NCBI GenBank assembly: GCA_963702095.1
Contig: OY969706.1
Location: 800,001 to 864,000 of the forward strand
Direction: 5' to 3'
DNA length: 64,000 nt
Source of the DNA: Candidatus Bathyarchaeota archaeon
Lineage (GTDB): Archaea > Thermoproteota > Bathyarchaeia > Bathyarchaeales > Bathycorpusculaceae
Both the position numbers and the translations under genes were made by a program. The notes under the pieces were generated by a model. That model was not told the DNA's origin, searched no databases, and worked only from the letters and a program-made list of their open reading frames with translations. Shown in pieces: positions 8,087-60,268 of this stretch (the first letter of the stretch is position 1; each line of letters begins with the position of its first letter).

Positions 8087-8270
8087 CATGCATGCATTCA
8101 CACGCACATCGCGCCTGCCTCTGCATGGAAGCATGCACTGGGTGTGGAGAAAAACAATCTCGCCACACCGAAACAGACGCTAAAACTGTTGCACCCCCAA
8201 AACACAACGCAGCCCACAACAGTCCTGTGGCACCCCGCAAACCGCCACACCCACATAAAGAGACAAAAAT
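8087..8270 (+). repeat. Dispersed repeat family A, copy 1
   Basis: CCACACCGAAACAGACGCTAAAA...GTGGCACCCCGCAAACCGCCACACCCACATAAAGAGA; near identical over ~100 nt to the reverse complement of part of copy 3. Confidence 0.9.
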
Positions 8271-17965: not shown

Positions 17966-18075
17966 TGCAGGGGGTGGGATTCGAGCTCGCAACTCAGTGG
18001 GTATATCGCCCGCCTTACCCCCTTTTTAACAGTAAATCACGTTTTTGTTCTCTCTCTTTGAGTGGATTTGCCAGT
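17966..18075 (-). repeat. Ectopic tRNA-Leu 3' end + linker + terminal fragment of repeat A
   Basis: Reverse complement ...CAAAGAGAGAGAACA...ACTGTTAAAAAGGGGGTAAGGCGGGCGATATACCCACTGAGTTGCGAGCTCGAATCCCACCCCCTGCA matches 57295-57376 and the last 19 nt of the tRNA (56157-56175). Confidence 0.85.
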
Positions 18076-18340
18076 ATATACCGAAGCTGTCTTCAAAATA
18101 ATTCAGGAGAGTTCGGTTTTTCACAAAAAGTTTCAATTCTTATGCCAGTCAGAACCAAGCTAAGCCCCATAATCATGCTTTCGTTTGCTAAATTAGCCGT
18201 AACTTGTTACCATTAATGCTCAATTTTGCATTGTAATTCTATGTTTTACAAAGATTGATTTGAAACCTGTGACATATTCTTATCGTTGAAATATAGGTTA
18301 AAACACTGGTTGACAGTGGAACTTCAAAGAGTGAAACAGT

Positions 18341-18690: not shown

Positions 18691-19008
18691 TTGCTTTGTG
18701 AAATAACAGTTAAGATAAAAGAAAGGAAGTGGGATATCACGATAGACCTCAAAGAGAATAAGAAAATCAGTCAACTGTATGAACGGACAGGGTCTAGGCA
18801 TCCACAGAAAAACGGGTTTGCAATTTGCCCAGAATGTGGACAAGAACTTCTTATCACACCGACACTCTTAGAAATGAGTCAAGTGATCGAAAACCACGTT
18901 GACTTACATAAGACTGTTTACCAATCCGACTCTTCCCTCGAGGTCACTAAACATCTACGGATTCGGCTCTCTTTGATGTGGCAGGTTTTAGATCAAAAAG
19001 GAATATAG
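18691..19008 (+). CDS. Small hypothetical protein with C2H2-like Zn motif
   Basis: CPECG...ENHVDLH. Confidence 0.55.
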   Translation: MLCEITVKIKERKWDITIDLKENKKISQLYERTGSRHPQKNGFAICPECGQELLITPTLLEMSQVIENHVDLHKTVYQSDSSLEVTKHLRIRLSLMWQVLDQKGI

Positions 19009-19040
19009 TGATTGACCAGTTCTCGCGGGCCAAACGGTAC

Positions 19041-19245
19041 TTTTCTGTTCTCTCTCTTTGTGTGGGTATGGCCGTTTACGGGGCACCACAAGAAAGGTTG
19101 TGTGAGTGATTGTTTTTTTGGGGAAGCATTGTTTTTTGGCGTCTGTTTTGGTGTGGGAAGTGCGTTTTCCACCACACAACCAACATCCCATGCAGAAACC
19201 ACTCCCGTGTGAATGTGAAACCACGTATCGTTTGCTTTCTTAGCG
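19041..19245 (-). repeat. Dispersed repeat family A, copy 2
   Basis: About four mismatches over ~118 nt versus copy 4 (57196-57314), by eye. Confidence 0.9.
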
Positions 19246-19405
19246 ACCGACAGAGAACAGCAAAAAACAGCACAACACAGATCAGGCACCAACAACCCCC
19301 ACACAAACCCAGCCCCACCCACAAAACACAACCCCCATCCAGAAAACCCCACAAAACAAACACAAATGTAATTCTGATAAAAGTCAAAAAACAAAAAATC
19401 ATGTG

Positions 19406-26945: not shown

Positions 26946-27087
26946 GGTTACTTTGGGTTTGTTTTTGCAATTTAATGCTTCTCGTCAAGGTTTCTTGACT
27001 AAACAACTTTTTGATAGTAAGTGTTCTTGGCGCTTTGCTTTGCCGTAGCCTCCCAATCCCCCTATTTACTAGTCGATTAAATTTTGG

Positions 27088-27232
27088 GTTTTTCGTTTTT
27101 CTATTGTTAGAAGAAGAGCGCTTCGCCCTTGCTCATCATCTTCTTGGGGGCTTGGCAGGCGGCTGTGTTTTGTGTTCTACAGTGGATATGGGTTGCTGGC
27201 TGGTTGTGGAATAAACCTCAAGCAGAACAGAA
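27088..27232 (+). repeat. Dispersed repeat family B, copy 2 (hairpin sequence swapped)
   Basis: GGCGGCTG...TGGGTTGCTGGCTGGTTGTGG...AAGCAGAACA matches copy 3; hairpin reads GAAGAAGAG...CTCATCATCTTC. Confidence 0.7.
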
Positions 27233-35089: not shown

Positions 35090-35235
35090 TTGTTTCTGCT
35101 TGTTGCTTGCGCCACAACCAGCCAGCAACCCAAAGCAGACGCAGACACAAAAAAGCAGCCGCCGATACAGTCCGTTGGTAGTTGTTGTGTATAGGCGGTT
35201 TTCACCAACAACAACTAAAGAAAACACTGAAAAAC
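35090..35235 (-). repeat. Dispersed repeat family B, copy 3
   Basis: CCACAACCAGCCAGCAAC...GTTGTTGTGTATAGGCGGTTTTCACCAACAACAACTA. Confidence 0.85.
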
Positions 35236-39405: not shown

Positions 39406-39436
39406 AGCTGCTTCCACCTCTGAGGGCAAGAATGCG

Positions 39437-39630
39437 TTTTTTCTCTTTATGTGGGTGTGGCGTTTTGCGGGGTGCCACAGGACTGGTTGTGGGCTGCGTT
39501 GTGTTTGGGGGGTGCAACAGTTTTTAGCGTCTGTTTCGGTGTGGATCTGCGTTTTCTTCCACACGCCTTGCATGGCGGCATGTTGAGTTGGGCCCATTTG
39601 GATGTGGAAGCATGTACCGTCGCTTTTTAC
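39437..39630 (-). repeat. Dispersed repeat family A, copy 3
   Basis: TTCTCTTTATGTGGGTGTGGCG...GCGTCTGTTTCGGTGTGG; near identical to copy 1. Confidence 0.9.
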
Positions 39631-46683: not shown

Positions 46684-46805
46684 ATTGCACAACCAGCCAG
46701 CAACGTGGATTAAACGCCAAAACAGAAGCAGCGTCTCTTAAACAAGCCGTTGGTTGTTGTTGTGCATAGCAGGTTTCTGCCAACAACAACTATAATAAAA
46801 CAACC
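46684..46805 (-). repeat. Dispersed repeat family B, copy 4
   Basis: CACAACCAGCCAGCAAC...GTTGTTGTTGTGCATAGCAGGTTTCTGCCAACAACAACTA. Confidence 0.85.
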
Positions 46806-50179: not shown

Positions 50180-50314
50180 ATTTTTATTTGATGTTGTTGC
50201 TGAGAAGCCCCTATACACAACAACAACCTGTGGCGTTTGTGGTGCAATGCTTTTTGGGGGCAGCGTTTGGTTTAGTTTGCTGATTGGTTGTGAAGCAAAA
50301 CGCAAGCAGAACAG
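50180..50314 (+). repeat. Dispersed repeat family B, copy 5
   Basis: GTTGTTGCTGAGAAGCCCCTATACACAACAACAACC...TTGCTGATTGGTTGTG...AAGCAGAACA. Confidence 0.75.
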
Positions 50315-50369
50315 ATTTTTGATCTACTGGTAAAACCAAATAAGAGAATACCCCGTTGTAAATAGTTCG

Positions 50370-56090: not shown

Positions 56091-56175
56091 GCAGGGGTCG
56101 CCGAGCCAGGTCAAAGGCGTAGGCTTCAGGAGCCTATCCTGCAGAGGTTCGTGGGTTCGAATCCCACCCCCTGCA
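56091..56175 (+). tRNA. tRNA-Leu (CAG), long variable arm, CCA not encoded
   Basis: GCAGGGG/CCCCTGC acceptor stem, TAGGC-TTCAGGA-GCCTA anticodon arm, GTGGGTTCGAATCCCAC T arm. Confidence 0.95.
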
Positions 56176-56366
56176 CTTCAACGTGAACCCCTGTTGTGGA
56201 TTGATATGTTTCTGTTCTGTGTTCTGGTTCATAATTCTTAACCTTCTCAAACAACCGCTTTCTATGTCTGATTTCCTTTAAGATTTCTTCTAACAGGTTT
56301 ATTCAAAAAAAGGTTTTTTCCTGCTTGAAATTGTCAGTTCTCAATAAACGCTCGAAATTCAGCTCT

Positions 56367-56777: not shown

Positions 56778-56877
56778 AGACAGAGTGAGTTTTCGCTAAA
56801 GTAGGGGTTTTATTACTATGACAAGGTAGCAGCGCGCTAAATCGCTAAACCGATTGGAGAAATTAGCTGTCTATTAG

Positions 56878-56975
56878 ATGTGCAGTGCCGTCTGGGCAGT
56901 AGACTTTGTCCCAAACTTGGGCTTTTTTAAAGCGCTCCTTACATTGGGCTAATTGAAGTGCGCATCCTTCACAAT
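56878..56975 (+). repeat. Repeat family C, copy 1
   Basis: GTGCCGTCTGGGCA.TA.ACTTT...CCCA plus GT.CGCATCC.TC.CAAT ~70 nt later; shared with 60172-60268. Confidence 0.55.
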
Positions 56976-57109
56976 TTTTACTTAACAGACAAAACACCTC
57001 TTTTAATTTAATTAGATAAATACTGGATGGTTCAAAGAAATAAATATTGTCTTATAAAGATACATTTTCTAAAGTAAGATTTCGTCCAAATTCGTAATCC
57101 CCTCCACCA

Positions 57110-57320
57110 CTTTTGGAAAAATGTGTTTGGTATGCACCGGCACACCCACATGCCGACCATTCCAACATGGACCCATGCAGAGCATGTGGAGAAAAACACA
57201 CTTCCCACACCAAAACAGACGCCAAAAAACAATGCTTCCCCAAAAAAACAATCACTCACACAACCTTTCTTGTGGTGCCCCGTAAACTGCCACACCCACA
57301 TAAAGAGAGAGAACACAAAC
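57110..57320 (+). repeat. Dispersed repeat family A, copy 4
   Basis: Full motif set; flanked by T-arm-like sequences at 57091-57110 and 57364-57376. Confidence 0.9.
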
Positions 57321-57490
57321 TGTTAAAAAAGGGGATGAGGCGGGCGATATCTCACTGAGTTGCGGGTTCGAATCCCTTTTTGACCCTTCGTGTTAGATTA
57401 ATATGAATAAAAATAGCAAAATAAGATGAAAAAAGAGTCTTTTCGGTGGTTCGCCGAGTCTTTGTTACTTGAGCAGAAACGTTGCGTAAA

Positions 57491-57709
57491 CTATACTTCG
57501 TTGTAGAGGTTGCATTTTGGGCACTTTAACACGACATTCTTGAATTTTCCTTCGATGATAGTCTCGCCTATCTTTGCTCCGCAATTGCCACATAGATAAG
57601 TAGTGTTACCGCCCTTGTTTTTTATTACTGGCAACGTTTTAGATGCATAAACGGTTGTTCCCTTTTTTGATTCGGGTATAACATTTAATTTTCTGTCCAT
57701 TTTATCCAC
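57491..57709 (-). CDS. Small Zn-ribbon protein
   Basis: YLCGNCG...LKCPKC. Confidence 0.65.
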   Translation of the reverse strand: MDKMDRKLNVIPESKKGTTVYASKTLPVIKNKGGNTTYLCGNCGAKIGETIIEGKFKNVVLKCPKCNLYNEV

Positions 57710-57844
57710 TTACTCGGGTTTAGTTGGTTTGACTCAGATTAAAACTTTATTGCTTATCGATCCTTCAACGGGAAGGCCCCAAAACATTGAGGAAAACAAA
57801 ATGTTGACGATATAATAGGTTCGAATCCCACCCCCTGCACCTTG

Positions 57845-58045
57845 TTTTTGAAAATGCGTTCGGCATGCAACGCCACATCCACACGTCAACCAATCCAACA
57901 TGAACCCATGCTGGGCATGTGGAGAAAATCACTCTTCCCACACTGAAATAACAATAGGAATTCAGCCCAAACCCAAAAAGCAATCCAATTCTCAAGCAAT
58001 CTCGTGGTGCTCCGTAAACCGCCACCCACATAAAGTGAGAAAAAG
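57845..58045 (+). repeat. Dispersed repeat family A, copy 5
   Basis: TTTTGAAAATGCGTTCGGCATGC...CATGTGGAGAAAA...GTGGTGCTCCGTAAACCGCCACCCACATAAAG; starts 4 nt after the tRNA 3' duplicate. Confidence 0.85.
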
Positions 58046-58538
58046 AGGGTTAGGTGATGTAGGGGGTCTTTTTTTGTTTTTTTGGTTCTCTGGGGGAGTC
58101 ACCCCAGGTTAGGAGCCACTGGTTAGGGTCCGAAGAGAGGGGGTTACGGGAACATGGTGACTTCGGTGAACTGCGCGCCCTTAGCATCCTTACAGGCGGC
58201 AAGCAAATTCTTAAGTAAGTCATCGCTCCAATCACACATAATCCAAGCCTCCTCCCCCAAAGAATCAGTAGCTACCCAACGCAAAAATAATCCCCAACCG
58301 CCAACCCCATCACCGGACAACTCTCATCAACCTCCGCATAACCCCAACCATATGCACCCTAAAAACACCCGCCCCCCAAATCACCAAAACGAACCCCATC
58401 CACAAACACCCACAAAAACCCTCCAACAAAGCTGCTTCCCAAACCAAACACCAACAAAAAAACCACATCACCAAAACAAAAACTGTACACCCGTACAACA
58501 ACCCTGCAACATAAGACAGCACCACACAATACTTATAT

Positions 58539-58556
58539 TTAAGTCTTAAGACTTAA
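58539..58556. promoter_or_regulatory. Perfect 18-bp palindrome next to the TATA-like box upstream of ftsZ
   Basis: CTTATAT followed by TTAAGTCTTAAGACTTAA. Confidence 0.55.
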
Positions 58557-58557
58557 G

Positions 58558-59664
58558 ATGTATATATCTAAGCGGGGGATTAATATCTTAAACGAACAGC
58601 AAGAAAATGTGTATCAAGAAACTCCATTTGTTGAGACTCAAGAGGAAAAGATTGAGAAATATGCCAGGATGGCGGTGCCGACTGTTGCTGCCGTTGGTTT
58701 AGGTGGCGGTGGTTGTAACGTTATTAGCTGGTGTAAGGAAAAAGGGATTTCTGGTGGTAAGTTGGTTGCGGTGAATACTGATGCTACGCATCTTCGGATT
58801 GTTAAGGCGGACAAGAGGATTCTGATCGGCGAGAAGATTACTCGCGGGTTGGGTGCTGGTGGTTACCCTGAGGTGGGTGAGCGTGCTCTGTATGAATCAG
58901 CGAACGAGGTTATTCATGAGTTGACTAAGTCGAACATTATATTCTTGGTTGCTGGACTCGGCGGAGGCACAGGCACTGGTTCAATCGTTGGTTTAGCTGA
59001 TGTTTTGCGTAAGAGATTCGCAGACGCTCCAATGGCGCCTTTGATCGTCGGCGTCGTCACCTTGCCGTTTGAAGTTGAAACTGCAAGAATGGCCGCAGCT
59101 AAAAAAGGGTTGAGCCGCCTCAAATCAGTATGCGACTCAGTTGTGGTCATCGACAACAACCGACTGGTCAAAGTAGCAGGCAACCTGCCCTTCAGAGAAG
59201 CCTTAGGCGTCGCCAACACAACTGTGGGCAAATTCGTTAAAGGCGTAACAGAAACCATCACCACAGCGAGCTTAATCAACCTCGACTATGCAGACCTCAA
59301 AGCAATCATGAGCGGCTCCGGCTTGGCATCCATCGGCATCGGCGAAGGCAGCGGCGAAAGCCGCGTTGAAGGCGCAGTTGACAAAGCCCTAAACGGACGA
59401 CTCTTAGACATCGAAGACGTAACCAAAGCCAAAGGACTCCTAATCCACGTCTCAGGCGGCGAAGACCTAACACTGAGCGAAGTCAACCGAGCAGCAGAAA
59501 TCATGAAACGCAGCCTGCCACCAAACGTAAAAATCATTTGGGGCGCACGCGTTGACCCAGAACTCAAAGGCGCAGTCTCAGTCATGGCAGTCGTCACCGG
59601 CGTCGAAAGCGCATTCCTCAAAAAGAGCGAAAAACACATCGGCAGACTAAAATTCAACCTCTAA
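58558..59664 (+). CDS. ftsZ: Cell division GTPase FtsZ (start uncertain)
   Basis: GLGGGGCN, NTD, GLGAGG.P, GLGGGTGTG, DNN, INLDYAD, IWGA. Confidence 0.95.
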   Translation: MYISKRGINILNEQQENVYQETPFVETQEEKIEKYARMAVPTVAAVGLGGGGCNVISWCKEKGISGGKLVAVNTDATHLRIVKADKRILIGEKITRGLGAGGYPEVGERALYESANEVIHELTKSNIIFLVAGLGGGTGTGSIVGLADVLRKRFADAPMAPLIVGVVTLPFEVETARMAAAKKGLSRLKSVCDSVVVIDNNRLVKVAGNLPFREALGVANTTVGKFVKGVTETITTASLINLDYADLKAIMSGSGLASIGIGEGSGESRVEGAVDKALNGRLLDIEDVTKAKGLLIHVSGGEDLTLSEVNRAAEIMKRSLPPNVKIIWGARVDPELKGAVSVMAVVTGVESAFLKKSEKHIGRLKFNL

Positions 59665-59754
59665 ACCCAAGTTTAGAGCTCAACAACTTTTTCTTTTCTT
59701 TTTTGTCTATAATTCTATCACCAGTTCTCAAACCAACATATCACAGAACACAAC

Positions 59755-59960
59755 CTGTTCTTTCTCTTTATGTGGGTGTGGTGGCTTATGGGATGCCACA
59801 AGAAGGCAGCAGAGAGCGGTTGCTTTTTGCGGAAGCATTGTGTTTCGGCTTCTGTTTCGGTGTGGGATAATCGATTTCTTGCACACATGGTGCATGGTTC
59901 TATGTTGAAGCGGTCGGGATGTGTGTGAATGCATGTATCTTTTGTCTTTTTAGCGTGGCA
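59755..59960 (-). repeat. Dispersed repeat family A, copy 6
   Basis: TTCTCTTTATGTGGGTGTGG...TCTGTTTCGGTGTGG...GTGTGAATGCATG. Confidence 0.85.
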
Positions 59961-60171
59961 GTGAATGGTAATGGTCAGCGCATTGCAAGCGGACACTAGC
60001 ATAGCCCAAGTCATGGCAACTTCTGCCAGCTCTCACTTCCAACCCAACCGAACCAAAAAACCTCAGGATATCCCTCTTCTATGGGTCACTTAAACAAAAA
60101 AAGCGTATGAAAGAATACTTAGGCTATTCTTCCTTGTTTGGGTACTTATGCTAGGCTTGCTTCGTCAACCA

Positions 60172-60268
60172 GGTGCGCTGTGCCGTCTGGGCAATAAACT
60201 TTTTCGCCCAAGTTGACTCTGCGGTATCTTTGCATGCAGACCCGTATTAGTCCGCATCCGTCGCAATC
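60172..60268 (+). repeat. Repeat family C, copy 2
   Basis: GTGCCGTCTGGGCA at 60180-60193; GTCCGCATCCGTCGCAAT at 60250-60267. Confidence 0.55.

Follow-up and report, generated by a model that had tools for sequence, protein, structure and literature searches.

Family A, a dispersed intergenic repeat confined to one Bathyarchaeia genus, is probably an orphan BOX/BIME-like element

We found that a non-coding sequence of ~190 nt, here called family A, is a dispersed repeat with about 100 copies lying almost solely between genes in the genome of a Candidatus Bathyarchaeota archaeon. It was recognized in a 64-kb stretch of that genome (the window; 64,000 nucleotides), where six copies are present. 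Most copies are old and have a counterpart at the same position in the nearest species. Within the repeat, about half of the columns are held constant and the remainder are randomised. Family A is confined to one genus of Bathyarchaeia. We think that it is probably an orphan, non-autonomous interspersed repeat of that genus, similar in kind to BOX and BIME elements.

Searching the 2.94-Mb genome with nhmmer gave 112 matches to family A, 94 of them near full length. Almost all of the near-full-length copies (92/94) were intergenic according to our own gene calls, which came from a crude caller of our own making that overlooked at least one short gene. Copies were spread across all ten 300-kb bins of the genome, and over these bins there was no strand bias by replichore. 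The partial matches were deletion variants rather than the ends of a longer element.

The two strands of the core differ strongly in composition, one being rich in C+A and the other in G+T. The core consists of five alternating CCACA/TGTGG segments and contains two conserved hairpins of 5-6 bp each (GTGTGG...CCACAC and TGTGGC...GCCACA), a CATGG..CCATG palindrome and several A5/T5 runs. An 11-nt direct repeat, CACAYCCACAT, lies close to both ends. One end is sharp (...CACATAAAGAGA(R)AAAA). The opposite end is variable and modular, with short forms, forms with a 65-nt L-module (22 copies) and forms with longer extensions. Among the 20 listed pairs that were at least 88% identical, the right end fell at model positions 179-193, except in one internally deleted pair (162). 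In the most similar pairs, the left end fell at -9/-11, -58/-62/-79, -217 or -366.

All six near-full-length copies reported for the window in the first-pass annotation were recovered with nhmmer (Table 1), and the conserved blocks described there are present as written. A seventh, terminal fragment was less certain: there is a 40-nt stretch with an 80% match to copy 2, and the profile missed it at E 1e-3. The claim that copies form near-identical pairs held in part. Copies 2 and 4 were 94.8% identical over 135 nt (the 3' part) and copies 1 and 3 were 88.6% identical over 140 nt, so the identity is partial. Recent copying had been inferred from these pairs. They are not evidence for recent copying of whole elements, because the copies are mosaics.

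Table 1. Copies of family A and neighbouring tRNA features in the window
Feature	Position	Strand	Basis
Family A copy 1, short form	8088-8270	+ (C+A-rich strand)	nhmmer 155 bits, model 3-187
Possible family A end fragment, weak	18039-18078	.	40 nt, 80% match to 19039-19078 (family D9)
Family A copy 2	19045-19229	-	nhmmer 171 bits
Family A copy 3	39435-39618	-	nhmmer 150 bits
tRNA-Leu (CAG), context, outside the repeat	56091-56176	+	ARAGORN; Rfam RF00005 54.7 bits
Family A copy 4	57110-57315 (core 57128-57315 plus ~18-nt leader)	+	nhmmer 170 bits
23-nt direct duplicate of the tRNA-Leu 3' end (56154-56176)	57818-57840	+	pattern search
Family A copy 5 (flagged copy)	57845-58048 (core 57862-58048 plus leader)	+	nhmmer 146 bits
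Family A copy 6, long form	59755-60030 (core 59755-59939 plus L-module to ~60030)	-	nhmmer 155 bits

Copies of family A swap parts through ectopic recombination. In two pairs of mosaic copies, the left 290-370 nt were identical and the right parts were ~75-80% identical. Copies also lose internal sequence by deletion between their direct repeats, leaving "solo" forms. At the site of copy 4, for example, the genome G007 has the same left junction (AATTCGTAATCCCC) and only a solo form, with the left end fused to the right at CCACAT. Solo forms were seen solely in genomes with family A. None was found in the 56 genomes of the genus that are without it, and we therefore rejected the idea that solo forms are pre-existing targets. 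Family A copies also coincide with rearrangement. Synteny was broken at copies in 7/19 loci with both flanks mapped, and the assembly of G007 is interrupted precisely at the copy that follows ftsZ.

Family A was found in 44/100 genomes of the genus, with from 1 to at least 24 scored matches each; G007 had 80 matches. Beyond the genus, it was found in 1/15 genomes of the same taxonomic family, and the 95 genomes from other families of the order gave no match. The claim that the family is previously undescribed stands, in that Rfam gave no match and our literature search found no account of such repeats in Bathyarchaeia.

Comparison with G007 indicated how the copies have aged. In 9-10 of the 12 collinear G007 loci, there was a copy at the same G000 site with the same junctions and orientation. 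Of the window copies, copy 6 is matched in G007 by a copy after ftsZ in the same place and orientation (G007:C140:1231-1409), copy 1 has a positional counterpart that is internally deleted, and the copy 2 locus holds a partial counterpart. We measured constraint on 17 positional pairs, with 4-fold codon sites taken from the flanking genes (n=7047). The block columns (about 97) were 0.896 identical (1418/1583), and the variable columns were 0.456 identical (330/724), where 0.43 is expected by chance. The 4-fold codon sites of the flanking genes were 0.652 identical; first codon positions were 0.907 identical. The variable columns diverge faster than 4-fold sites. Since the blocks are 90% identical compared to 65% at 4-fold sites, and the variable columns are at chance, the blocks are constrained. 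Constraint in old, immobile copies is unlike the decay of a purely selfish element and points to a function in place.

These results could also be explained if family A were mainly a cis-element used by the host and not a selfish repeat, a possibility that we regard as real and less favored. Under this alternative, each copy would offer about seven CCACA/TGTGG sites to a lineage-specific DNA- or RNA-binding protein, or would act as a hairpin switch at gene ends, and purifying selection would operate on each site. The block columns do evolve about as slowly as first codon positions, junctions and orientation are kept between species, and the conserved columns form contiguous runs without 3-base periodicity. 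In addition, the segments could pair as 1:2, 2:3, 3:4 and 4:5, and such alternative pairing of complementary segments would force sequence invariance without covariation. However, more than half of the genus (56/100 genomes) gave no match to the repeat and copy number ranges from 1 to ~100, which would be unusual for something that the host depends on. Copies have also been cut down to solo forms by deletion or have had another family take their place, and no candidate partner protein was found.

The replacing family, family B, is a second repeat of ~190 nt with at least 59 copies in the genome that contains the window. In one intergenic slot, family A is present in G007 and family B in G000. 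A related reading, which we consider rather doubtful, is that family A (perhaps with family B) is neither junk nor a decaying transposon and instead represents a novel type of chromosomal cis-element in archaea. About a hundred copies at fixed positions would each bear an array of about seven CCACA/TGTGG sites, the five alternating complementary segments could form alternative hairpins, and purifying selection would keep the sites evolving as slowly as first codon positions while the spacers are actively scrambled. If so, family A could serve as a docking site for a lineage-specific protein that organises the chromosome or insulates transcription units. Alternatively, it could be a bistable one-directional terminator.

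The position of copies relative to genes was partly as the first-pass annotation had claimed. In the window, the AAAGAGA end was 30-91 nt from a stop codon in 4/6 copies: 41 nt from a convergent gene end for copy 1 and 30 nt from a gene end for copy 3, with the G+T strand of copy 2 beginning 37 nt past the stop of ORF 18691-19008 and copy 6 beginning 91 nt past the ftsZ stop. The fixed orientation did not extend to the whole genome, where the bias was modest. The AAAGAGA end faced the gene 3' end in 56/94 copies (56:38; binomial p 0.08), and in tandem spacers the orientation of family A was 32:17 (p 0.044). Copies of family B likewise lie 45-65 nt from stop codons, with no bias in orientation. 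Because family B has the same distance to stop codons and no bias, the nearness of family A to stop codons may just reflect where inserts are tolerated.

RNA-level explanations fared less well. It is quite unlikely, in our judgment, that family A copies are structured non-coding RNA genes (small RNAs or 3'-UTR RNAs) with a selected fold. Three local hairpins are kept in nearly all copies, as this explanation would predict. In contrast, compensatory changes were found at 0/14 consensus pairs on the C+A strand and, in one sequence each, at 2/22 on the G+T strand. The covariation term was about 0, and the top mutual-information pairs were not Watson-Crick. Folding z-scores were -0.86 and -0.53 for the two strands (19/94 copies sampled). 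No Rfam family matched at gathering score, the best sub-threshold match having an E of 0.06, far under the cut-off. Reading by eye, we saw no BRE/TATA at a fixed place of the type that precedes this genome's tRNAs. The structured, REP-like RNA offered as an alternative in the first-pass annotation is therefore supported neither by covariation nor by folding energy. In one copy, the G+T-rich left extension folds against the C+A-rich core as a long hairpin, which is expected from base composition. Two RNA runs had 6-7% of words; their contigs came mostly from relatives, one exact contig lay inside ftsZ and no usable contig fell on the repeats, so these runs speak neither for nor against expression.

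Family A does not appear to encode a protein. Reading frames are not conserved, as had been noted: ORFs that start at the conserved ATG of the G+T strand have a median of 25 codons, and this ATG is missing in 17/83 copies. We therefore rejected a small protein on the G+T strand, given the lack of a conserved ORF and of 3-base periodicity in the conserved columns.

We looked for signs of a known type of mobile element. The absence of terminal inverted repeats was confirmed: inverted pairs in four copies were all internal (CCACA/TGTGG) and none joined both ends. No target-site duplication was found in the flanks of the four most similar pairs. The CACAYCCACAT repeat belongs to every copy and so is not a target duplication. 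Elements of the IS200/IS605 type likewise lack terminal inverted repeats and target duplications. Family A might be a non-autonomous derivative of such an element (a PATE, possibly with an omega-RNA-like scaffold) or a REP/RAYT derivative, and its subterminal hairpins and one sharply defined end are consistent with this. We nevertheless consider this origin highly improbable. The genome has no match to the Y1 transposase (PF01797; control genomes gave matches) or to TnpB (PF07282), and both are missing from all listed high-copy genomes. Across the 100 genomes of the genus, the presence of Y1 and TnpB is opposed to that of the repeat: Y1 transposases were found in 9/44 genomes with the repeat and 24/56 without it, and strong TnpB matches were in five genomes (G019, G021, G042, G047 and G064), all without the repeat. 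Furthermore, variable segments and flanks had no guide-like matches beyond shuffled controls. The longest exact matches elsewhere were 11.7 and 12.0 nt, compared to 11.3 and 11.3 nt in shuffles, and we rejected a use of the variable segments as guides.

The tRNA-Leu locus in the window had suggested that family A is a miniature element that an integrase mobilises in trans, with tRNA-like att sites as targets. The last 23 nt of the tRNA-Leu are indeed perfectly duplicated directly before copy 5, 1,664 nt downstream of the original (2 pattern matches, 0 expected). A degenerate look-alike of the tRNA-Leu end precedes copy 4, and GGGTTCGAATCCC comes after it. We found no such association in the family as a whole. 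A T-arm-like motif was within 80 nt of only 2/112 matches, both of them the copies at the tRNA-Leu locus. Matches were not enriched near the 41 tRNA genes, with 9/112 within 2 kb of a tRNA compared to 6.4 +/- 2.4 under random placement. The lack of genome-wide enrichment is the outcome that the first-pass annotation had itself set as a refutation of mobilisation at att sites. The local evidence also weakens on inspection. The left flank of copy 4 is an ordinary conserved flank in G007, and copies 4 and 5, which have a common leader, look like one local duplication (over 117 nt, the leader and 5' part of copy 5 match those of copy 4 at 79% identity; family D2). The 1.66-kb stretch between the tRNA-Leu end and its duplicate contains two small ORFs and no integrase domains, and no long copy carrying an integrase or reverse transcriptase was found in the genome. 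We conclude that family A is not a tRNA-targeting element, and we give almost no credence to integrase-driven movement. The tRNA-Leu setting of copies 4 and 5 would be coincidental, the local outcome of a separate duplication or insertion linked to the tRNA. Of the original description as an element, what survives is that family A is dispersed, non-coding, without terminal inverted repeats and undescribed.

Several other candidates were rejected. A SINE-like repeat derived from a retroelement and casposon end scars had no matching enzymes in the genome (RT, PF00078, and Cas1, PF01867; 0 matches each), and the terminal inverted repeats and ~14-bp target-site duplication expected of casposon scars are missing as well. 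There were no matches to the IS110 transposase. A Y2 transposase search also gave no matches, in this genome or in the control genomes, and is therefore uninformative. The genome contains no IS-sized multicopy repeats, so no parent IS with matching ends was seen. Copies are not clustered in arrays, as integron attC sites or gene cassettes would be. Three close inverted pairs flank housekeeping genes without a transposase (TFB, SUI1, a MiaB-like radical-SAM enzyme, a CbbQ-type ATPase and a DNA-alkylation repair protein) and are not composite transposons. An apparent copy split by a 17.6-kb insert (genome 155655/173378) proved to be two unrelated copies, one of them an internal deletion variant. 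A 17-nt end pattern was found at 30 loci in viral contigs, with one weak 46-nt model match (14 bits), and we attribute these to chance.

We did not catch a transposition event. For the two best recent pairs, gene conversion is an alternative reading, and the check for empty-site loci gave no clean empty site among the compared genomes. At the best candidate, after ftsZ in G059, the copy is absent, but the downstream gene differs.

If family A is an orphan BOX/BIME-like repeat, as we favor, it would have spread through an unknown trans-acting activity or through recombination, leaving neither terminal inverted repeats nor target duplications. It would have persisted through use of its conserved motifs in cis. 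The likeliest such use may be as a one-directional 3'-end or terminator-type module, since the G+T strand has hairpins and three or four T5 runs and tends to share the direction of the upstream gene. The terminator idea does not account for the invariant CCACA/TGTGG motifs. As another candidate use, each copy may be a platform with several sites for a sequence-specific protein.

In soils and sediments, Bathyarchaeia rank among the most abundant uncultured archaea, and to our knowledge almost nothing is known of their non-coding DNA. At least two repeat families of ~190 nt are present in one genus. The repeats are markers of genome rearrangement between species and give rise to contig breaks in metagenome assemblies. 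The 90% conserved blocks next to randomised spacers, at the same sites in two species, are a concrete and testable sign of function.

Families A and B fit none of the classes MITE, REP/RAYT, IS200/IS605 derivative, retroelement or casposon scar. Like MITEs, including the SM elements of Sulfolobus, family A is small, non-coding, intergenic, high-copy, patchy and non-autonomous. However, the terminal inverted repeats and target-site duplications that define MITEs are missing and no parent IS was found. Among the alternatives raised in the first-pass annotation, REP-type repeats in the broad sense are the closest fit. REP units are G+C-rich palindromes of 20-40 nt, and enterobacterial REP/BIME are moved by RAYT (Y1) transposases. 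Family A shares with REP/BIME an extragenic location, often at gene 3' ends, a mosaic of modules, the lack of target-site duplications and an association with recombination and rearrangement hotspots. It differs from REP in its 190-nt unit, which contains two hairpins of 5-6 bp and has little overall dyad symmetry. It differs from REP/BIME in that Y1/RAYT is missing from its own genome and, within the genus, opposes the repeat.

The pneumococcal BOX elements are bacterial intergenic repeats with a modular boxA-boxB-boxC structure, and we know of no transposase for them. BOX and family A are alike in length (~100-200 nt), in having about a hundred dispersed intergenic copies, optional modules and hairpins, and in their narrow lineage. 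Family A is, as expected of a BOX-like orphan, dispersed, modular and hairpin-bearing, with no mobilising enzyme found. The two are not related in sequence, family A being C+A/G+T asymmetric and built on a repeated 5-nt motif. For family A, constraint in place was measured here across species.

We found that family A, a non-coding dispersed repeat of ~190 nt, is present in the window in six near-full copies. Gapless repeat finding and alignment agree on this number, as does the first-pass annotation. A profile built from the six copies gave 112 matches at E < 1e-3 in the window's own genome (one contig, 2,937,366 bases; the window is C1:800001-864000). Of these, 94 span model positions <=12 to >=178, and 92 of the 94 near-full copies overlap no gene, as called with a crude purpose-made gene caller. 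With a sequence-only model, family A was found in 44 of the 100 genus genomes sampled (1 to at least 24 matches per genome), in 1 of 15 genomes from other genera of the same family, and in none of 95 genomes from other families of the order. G007, the nearest species compared, gave 80 matches when searched alone. Viral contigs gave chance matches only. At the Rfam gathering score tRNA-Leu was the sole match in the window, and a permissive scan of 57000-60200 came close to no family's cut-off. We found no description of such a repeat in the literature on Bathyarchaeia/Bathyarchaeota repeats and mobile elements.

Locations of family A copies and neighboring features
Feature	Frame	Location	Strand
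Copy 1	window	8088-8270	+
Copy 2	window	19045-19229	-
Copy 3	window	39435-39618	-
Copy 4	window	57110-57315	+
Copy 5	window	57845-58048	+
Copy 6	window	59755-60030	-
tRNA-Leu 3' end, 23 nt	window	56154-56176	
Direct duplicate of that end	window	57818-57840	
Degenerate tRNA-Leu 3'-end look-alike	window	~57086-57110	
T-arm-like piece, GGGTTCGAATCCC	window	57364-57376	
Family D8, core GTGCCGTCTGGGCA	window	56869-56910; 60164-60205	
C+A-rich tracts	window	58240-58530; 19230-19400	
Family D3	window	35113-35224; 46688-46799	
Family B	window	27036-27225; 50252-50315	
Deletion between CCACACC repeats	own genome	155655	
Solo form	own genome	1722344-1722367	
Inverted pair	own genome	571947-572131 / 579609-579793	
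Inverted pair	own genome	1628923-1629079 / 1632374-1632527	
Inverted pair	own genome	2128554-2128725 / 2131605-2131772	

On the C+A-rich strand, the consensus runs from GATACATGCTTTCACATCCACA through a variable stretch, CATGGAGCCATG and a short variable stretch to GTGTGGAGAAAAAC. A loop and TCCCACACCGAAACAGAC follow, then an A-rich, semi-variable region containing AAAAAGCAAC, 16 nt of variable sequence, GTCTTGTGGCACCCCGYAAACCGCCACACCCACATAAAGAGA and a tail of purines. Five alternating segments carry CCACA or its complement TGTGG and form two hairpins, present in nearly every copy, and an 11-nt direct repeat, CACAYCCACAT, lies close to each end. Ends were read from 20 listed copy pairs (>=88% identity). 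Among these, the AAAGAGA (right) end is sharply defined and falls at model position 179-193 (one internally deleted pair: 162), and the left end is variable, at -9/-11, -58/-62/-79, -217 or -366. A 65-nt L-module on the left side is common to 22 copies. Family A is not protein-coding, because the ORF from the conserved ATG of the G+T strand has a median of 25 codons, this ATG is missing in 17 of 83 copies, and the conserved columns form contiguous runs with no 3-base rhythm. The lack of conserved reading frames and of terminal inverted repeats had been noticed at first pass; we too found no such inverted repeats in family A, and no target duplications at the most similar pairs.

We found that family A is old and that its blocks and variable parts evolve differently. 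Flanking genes are 81-94% identical between G007 and the window's genome (0.652 at 4-fold sites; 7,047 sites). Thirty G007 loci were compared, with both flanks mapped in 19. Flanks lie side by side in the window's genome for 12 of the 30, and 9-10 of these 12 carry family A in the same position. The two genomes likewise share copies downstream of ftsZ and at the positions of copies 1 and 2. Junctions and orientation are identical in the pairwise alignments. Positional orthologs were no more similar than random pairs (median ortholog rank, 21 of 94). Across 17 positional pairs, the 97 block columns were 0.896 identical, a pace close to that of first codon positions (0.907). In contrast, the 47 variable columns were 0.456 identical (chance, 0.43; non-orthologous pairs, 0.426) and change faster than 4-fold sites. 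Some form of selection acts on the blocks, since unbiased gene conversion alone cannot split columns into conserved and non-conserved. In two copy pairs, identity extends over 290-370 nt and ends within the core, where the copies diverge. The scrambled variable parts fit ectopic exchange, which may not be the whole explanation.

At seven of the 19 loci with both flanks mapped (L199, L200, L211, L213, L215, L216 and L219), the flanks are far apart in the window's genome. Most of these loci have a copy next to one or both of the separated sites (both for L199), so family A marks rearrangement breakpoints between the two genomes. Copies also lose internal sequence by deletion between their own direct repeats, as between two CCACACC repeats (see table). 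Solo forms, in which the left end is joined to the right end at CCACAT, were seen at one site in the window's genome and, in G007, at the locus corresponding to copy 4. At the former, G007 appears to carry a full copy (one mapped flank; the direct alignment is unclear). Solo forms are decay products, since they are seen only where family A occurs; none was found in 56 genomes without family A, and we rejected the notion that they are empty targets.

The G007 assembly breaks at or beside repeat copies (contigs C140, C57, C43 and C110), once between ftsZ and the next gene and once within the tRNA-Leu region. Short-read Bathyarchaeia MAGs are probably less contiguous because of family A repeats.

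The AAAGAGA end faces a gene 3' end in 56 of 94 copies (median distance, 55 nt). In co-directional spacers the G+T strand has the direction of the genes 32 times and the opposite direction 17 times (p 0.044). The first-pass annotation had placed four of the six long window copies near stop codons in a fixed orientation; we, too, see this pattern in four of the six, and genome-wide it is a modest bias. The other side of family A lies on average 120-150 nt further from genes. Our interpretation is that, on this side, many copies reach further out as diverged sequence.

Family B, a second dispersed intergenic repeat (~150-190 nt, one strand G+T-rich), occurs in the window and genome-wide. Counting alignments of >=100 nt, it has at least 59 copies (83 blastn matches), and none overlaps a gene. 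The sequence (T)ATAGGGGAGGGGAGAGGTCGGCAG, seemingly a module on the right of family A, is actually the head of family B; family B lies within 150 nt of just 2 of the 94 family A copies. In one intergenic spacer, G007 has family A where the window's genome has family B. Family B lies 45-65 nt from stop codons and about 150 nt from gene starts, with no orientation bias. Because this spacing is similar, the closeness of family A to stop codons may merely reflect where inserts are tolerated.

The conserved motifs of family A would work in cis. The G+T strand has hairpins and three or four T5 runs. From these and the modest orientation bias, our first guess is a one-directional 3'-end or terminator module. 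The main rival is that the motifs form a protein-binding array.

A structured RNA, one of two readings offered at first pass, fares less well. Folding 26 copies with RNAalifold yielded -9.6 kcal/mol for one strand and -9.8 kcal/mol for the other (covariation terms, 0.04 and -0.44). Compensatory change was seen in 0/14 and 2/22 consensus pairs, mutual information across family A gave no Watson-Crick pairs, and folding z-scores were -0.86 and -0.53 (19 of 94 copies). Together with the lack of an Rfam match, these values argue against a conserved fold; the hairpins are conserved as sequence, not structure. RNA sequencing runs contributed no usable coverage of the repeats.

The other reading, mobilization at tRNA-like att sites, came from the surroundings of copies 4 and 5. 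The last 23 nt of tRNA-Leu do recur 1,664 nt downstream, directly before copy 5, as annotated. Copies 4 and 5 have a leader in common (family D2; 79% identity over 117 nt) and look like one local duplication. A degenerate look-alike of the tRNA end and a further T-arm-like piece were also seen here. Between the two tRNA-Leu ends are two small ORFs (136 and 72 aa; sub-threshold domain matches only) and no integrase. In G007, conservation reaches as far as copy 4 and takes in the tRNA, the first ORF and this copy's left junction. This stretch looks like the remnants of at least one old tRNA-linked insertion or duplication. No family-wide tRNA link is seen: of 112 matches, 2 have a T-arm-like motif within 80 nt, exactly copies 4 and 5, and 9 are within 2 kb of any of 41 tRNA genes, versus 6.4 +/- 2.4 with random placement.

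Other repeats were seen in the window. The 42-nt family D8 repeat (79% identity) is conserved in G007. Instead of a non-coding repeat, it may be where a small zinc-ribbon gene ends. Wetland metatranscriptome RNA contigs match both D8 places at <90% likeness and so come from relatives. A ~290-nt, very C+A-rich low-complexity tract lies upstream of the ftsZ promoter region, and similar tracts follow copy 2. The family A profile is blind to the ftsZ tract; such tracts are possibly repeat copies that have decayed, or else a feature of their own. Family D3 is a 112-nt two-copy direct repeat (71% identical).

The window's genome had no matches to TnpB, Y1 transposase, reverse transcriptase, IS110 transposase or Cas1, each detected in control genomes. 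No long copy carrying an integrase or reverse transcriptase, for which the first pass proposed to look, was found. An IS91 Y2 search gave zero matches anywhere, control genomes included. Genome self-comparison revealed no IS-like multicopy repeat, and what close inverted family A pairs enclose is housekeeping genes. Y1 was found in 9 of 44 genus genomes with family A versus 24 of 56 without (100 genomes); strong TnpB matches came from five, all without family A. Three inverted pairs around housekeeping genes are 99.5%, 98.3% and 93% alike and 3-7.6 kb apart, and may reflect local gene conversion or invertible segments. As a MITE, REP/RAYT element, IS200/IS605 derivative, casposon scar or retroelement, family A fails the defining tests.

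With the anatomy, range, age, block constraint, mosaicism, decay routes and rearrangement link documented here, family A is, on balance, rather likely an old, orphan, modular interspersed repeat. It would once have spread through a trans-acting activity or by recombination. In behavior it is closest to the pneumococcal BOX and enterobacterial BIME mosaics.
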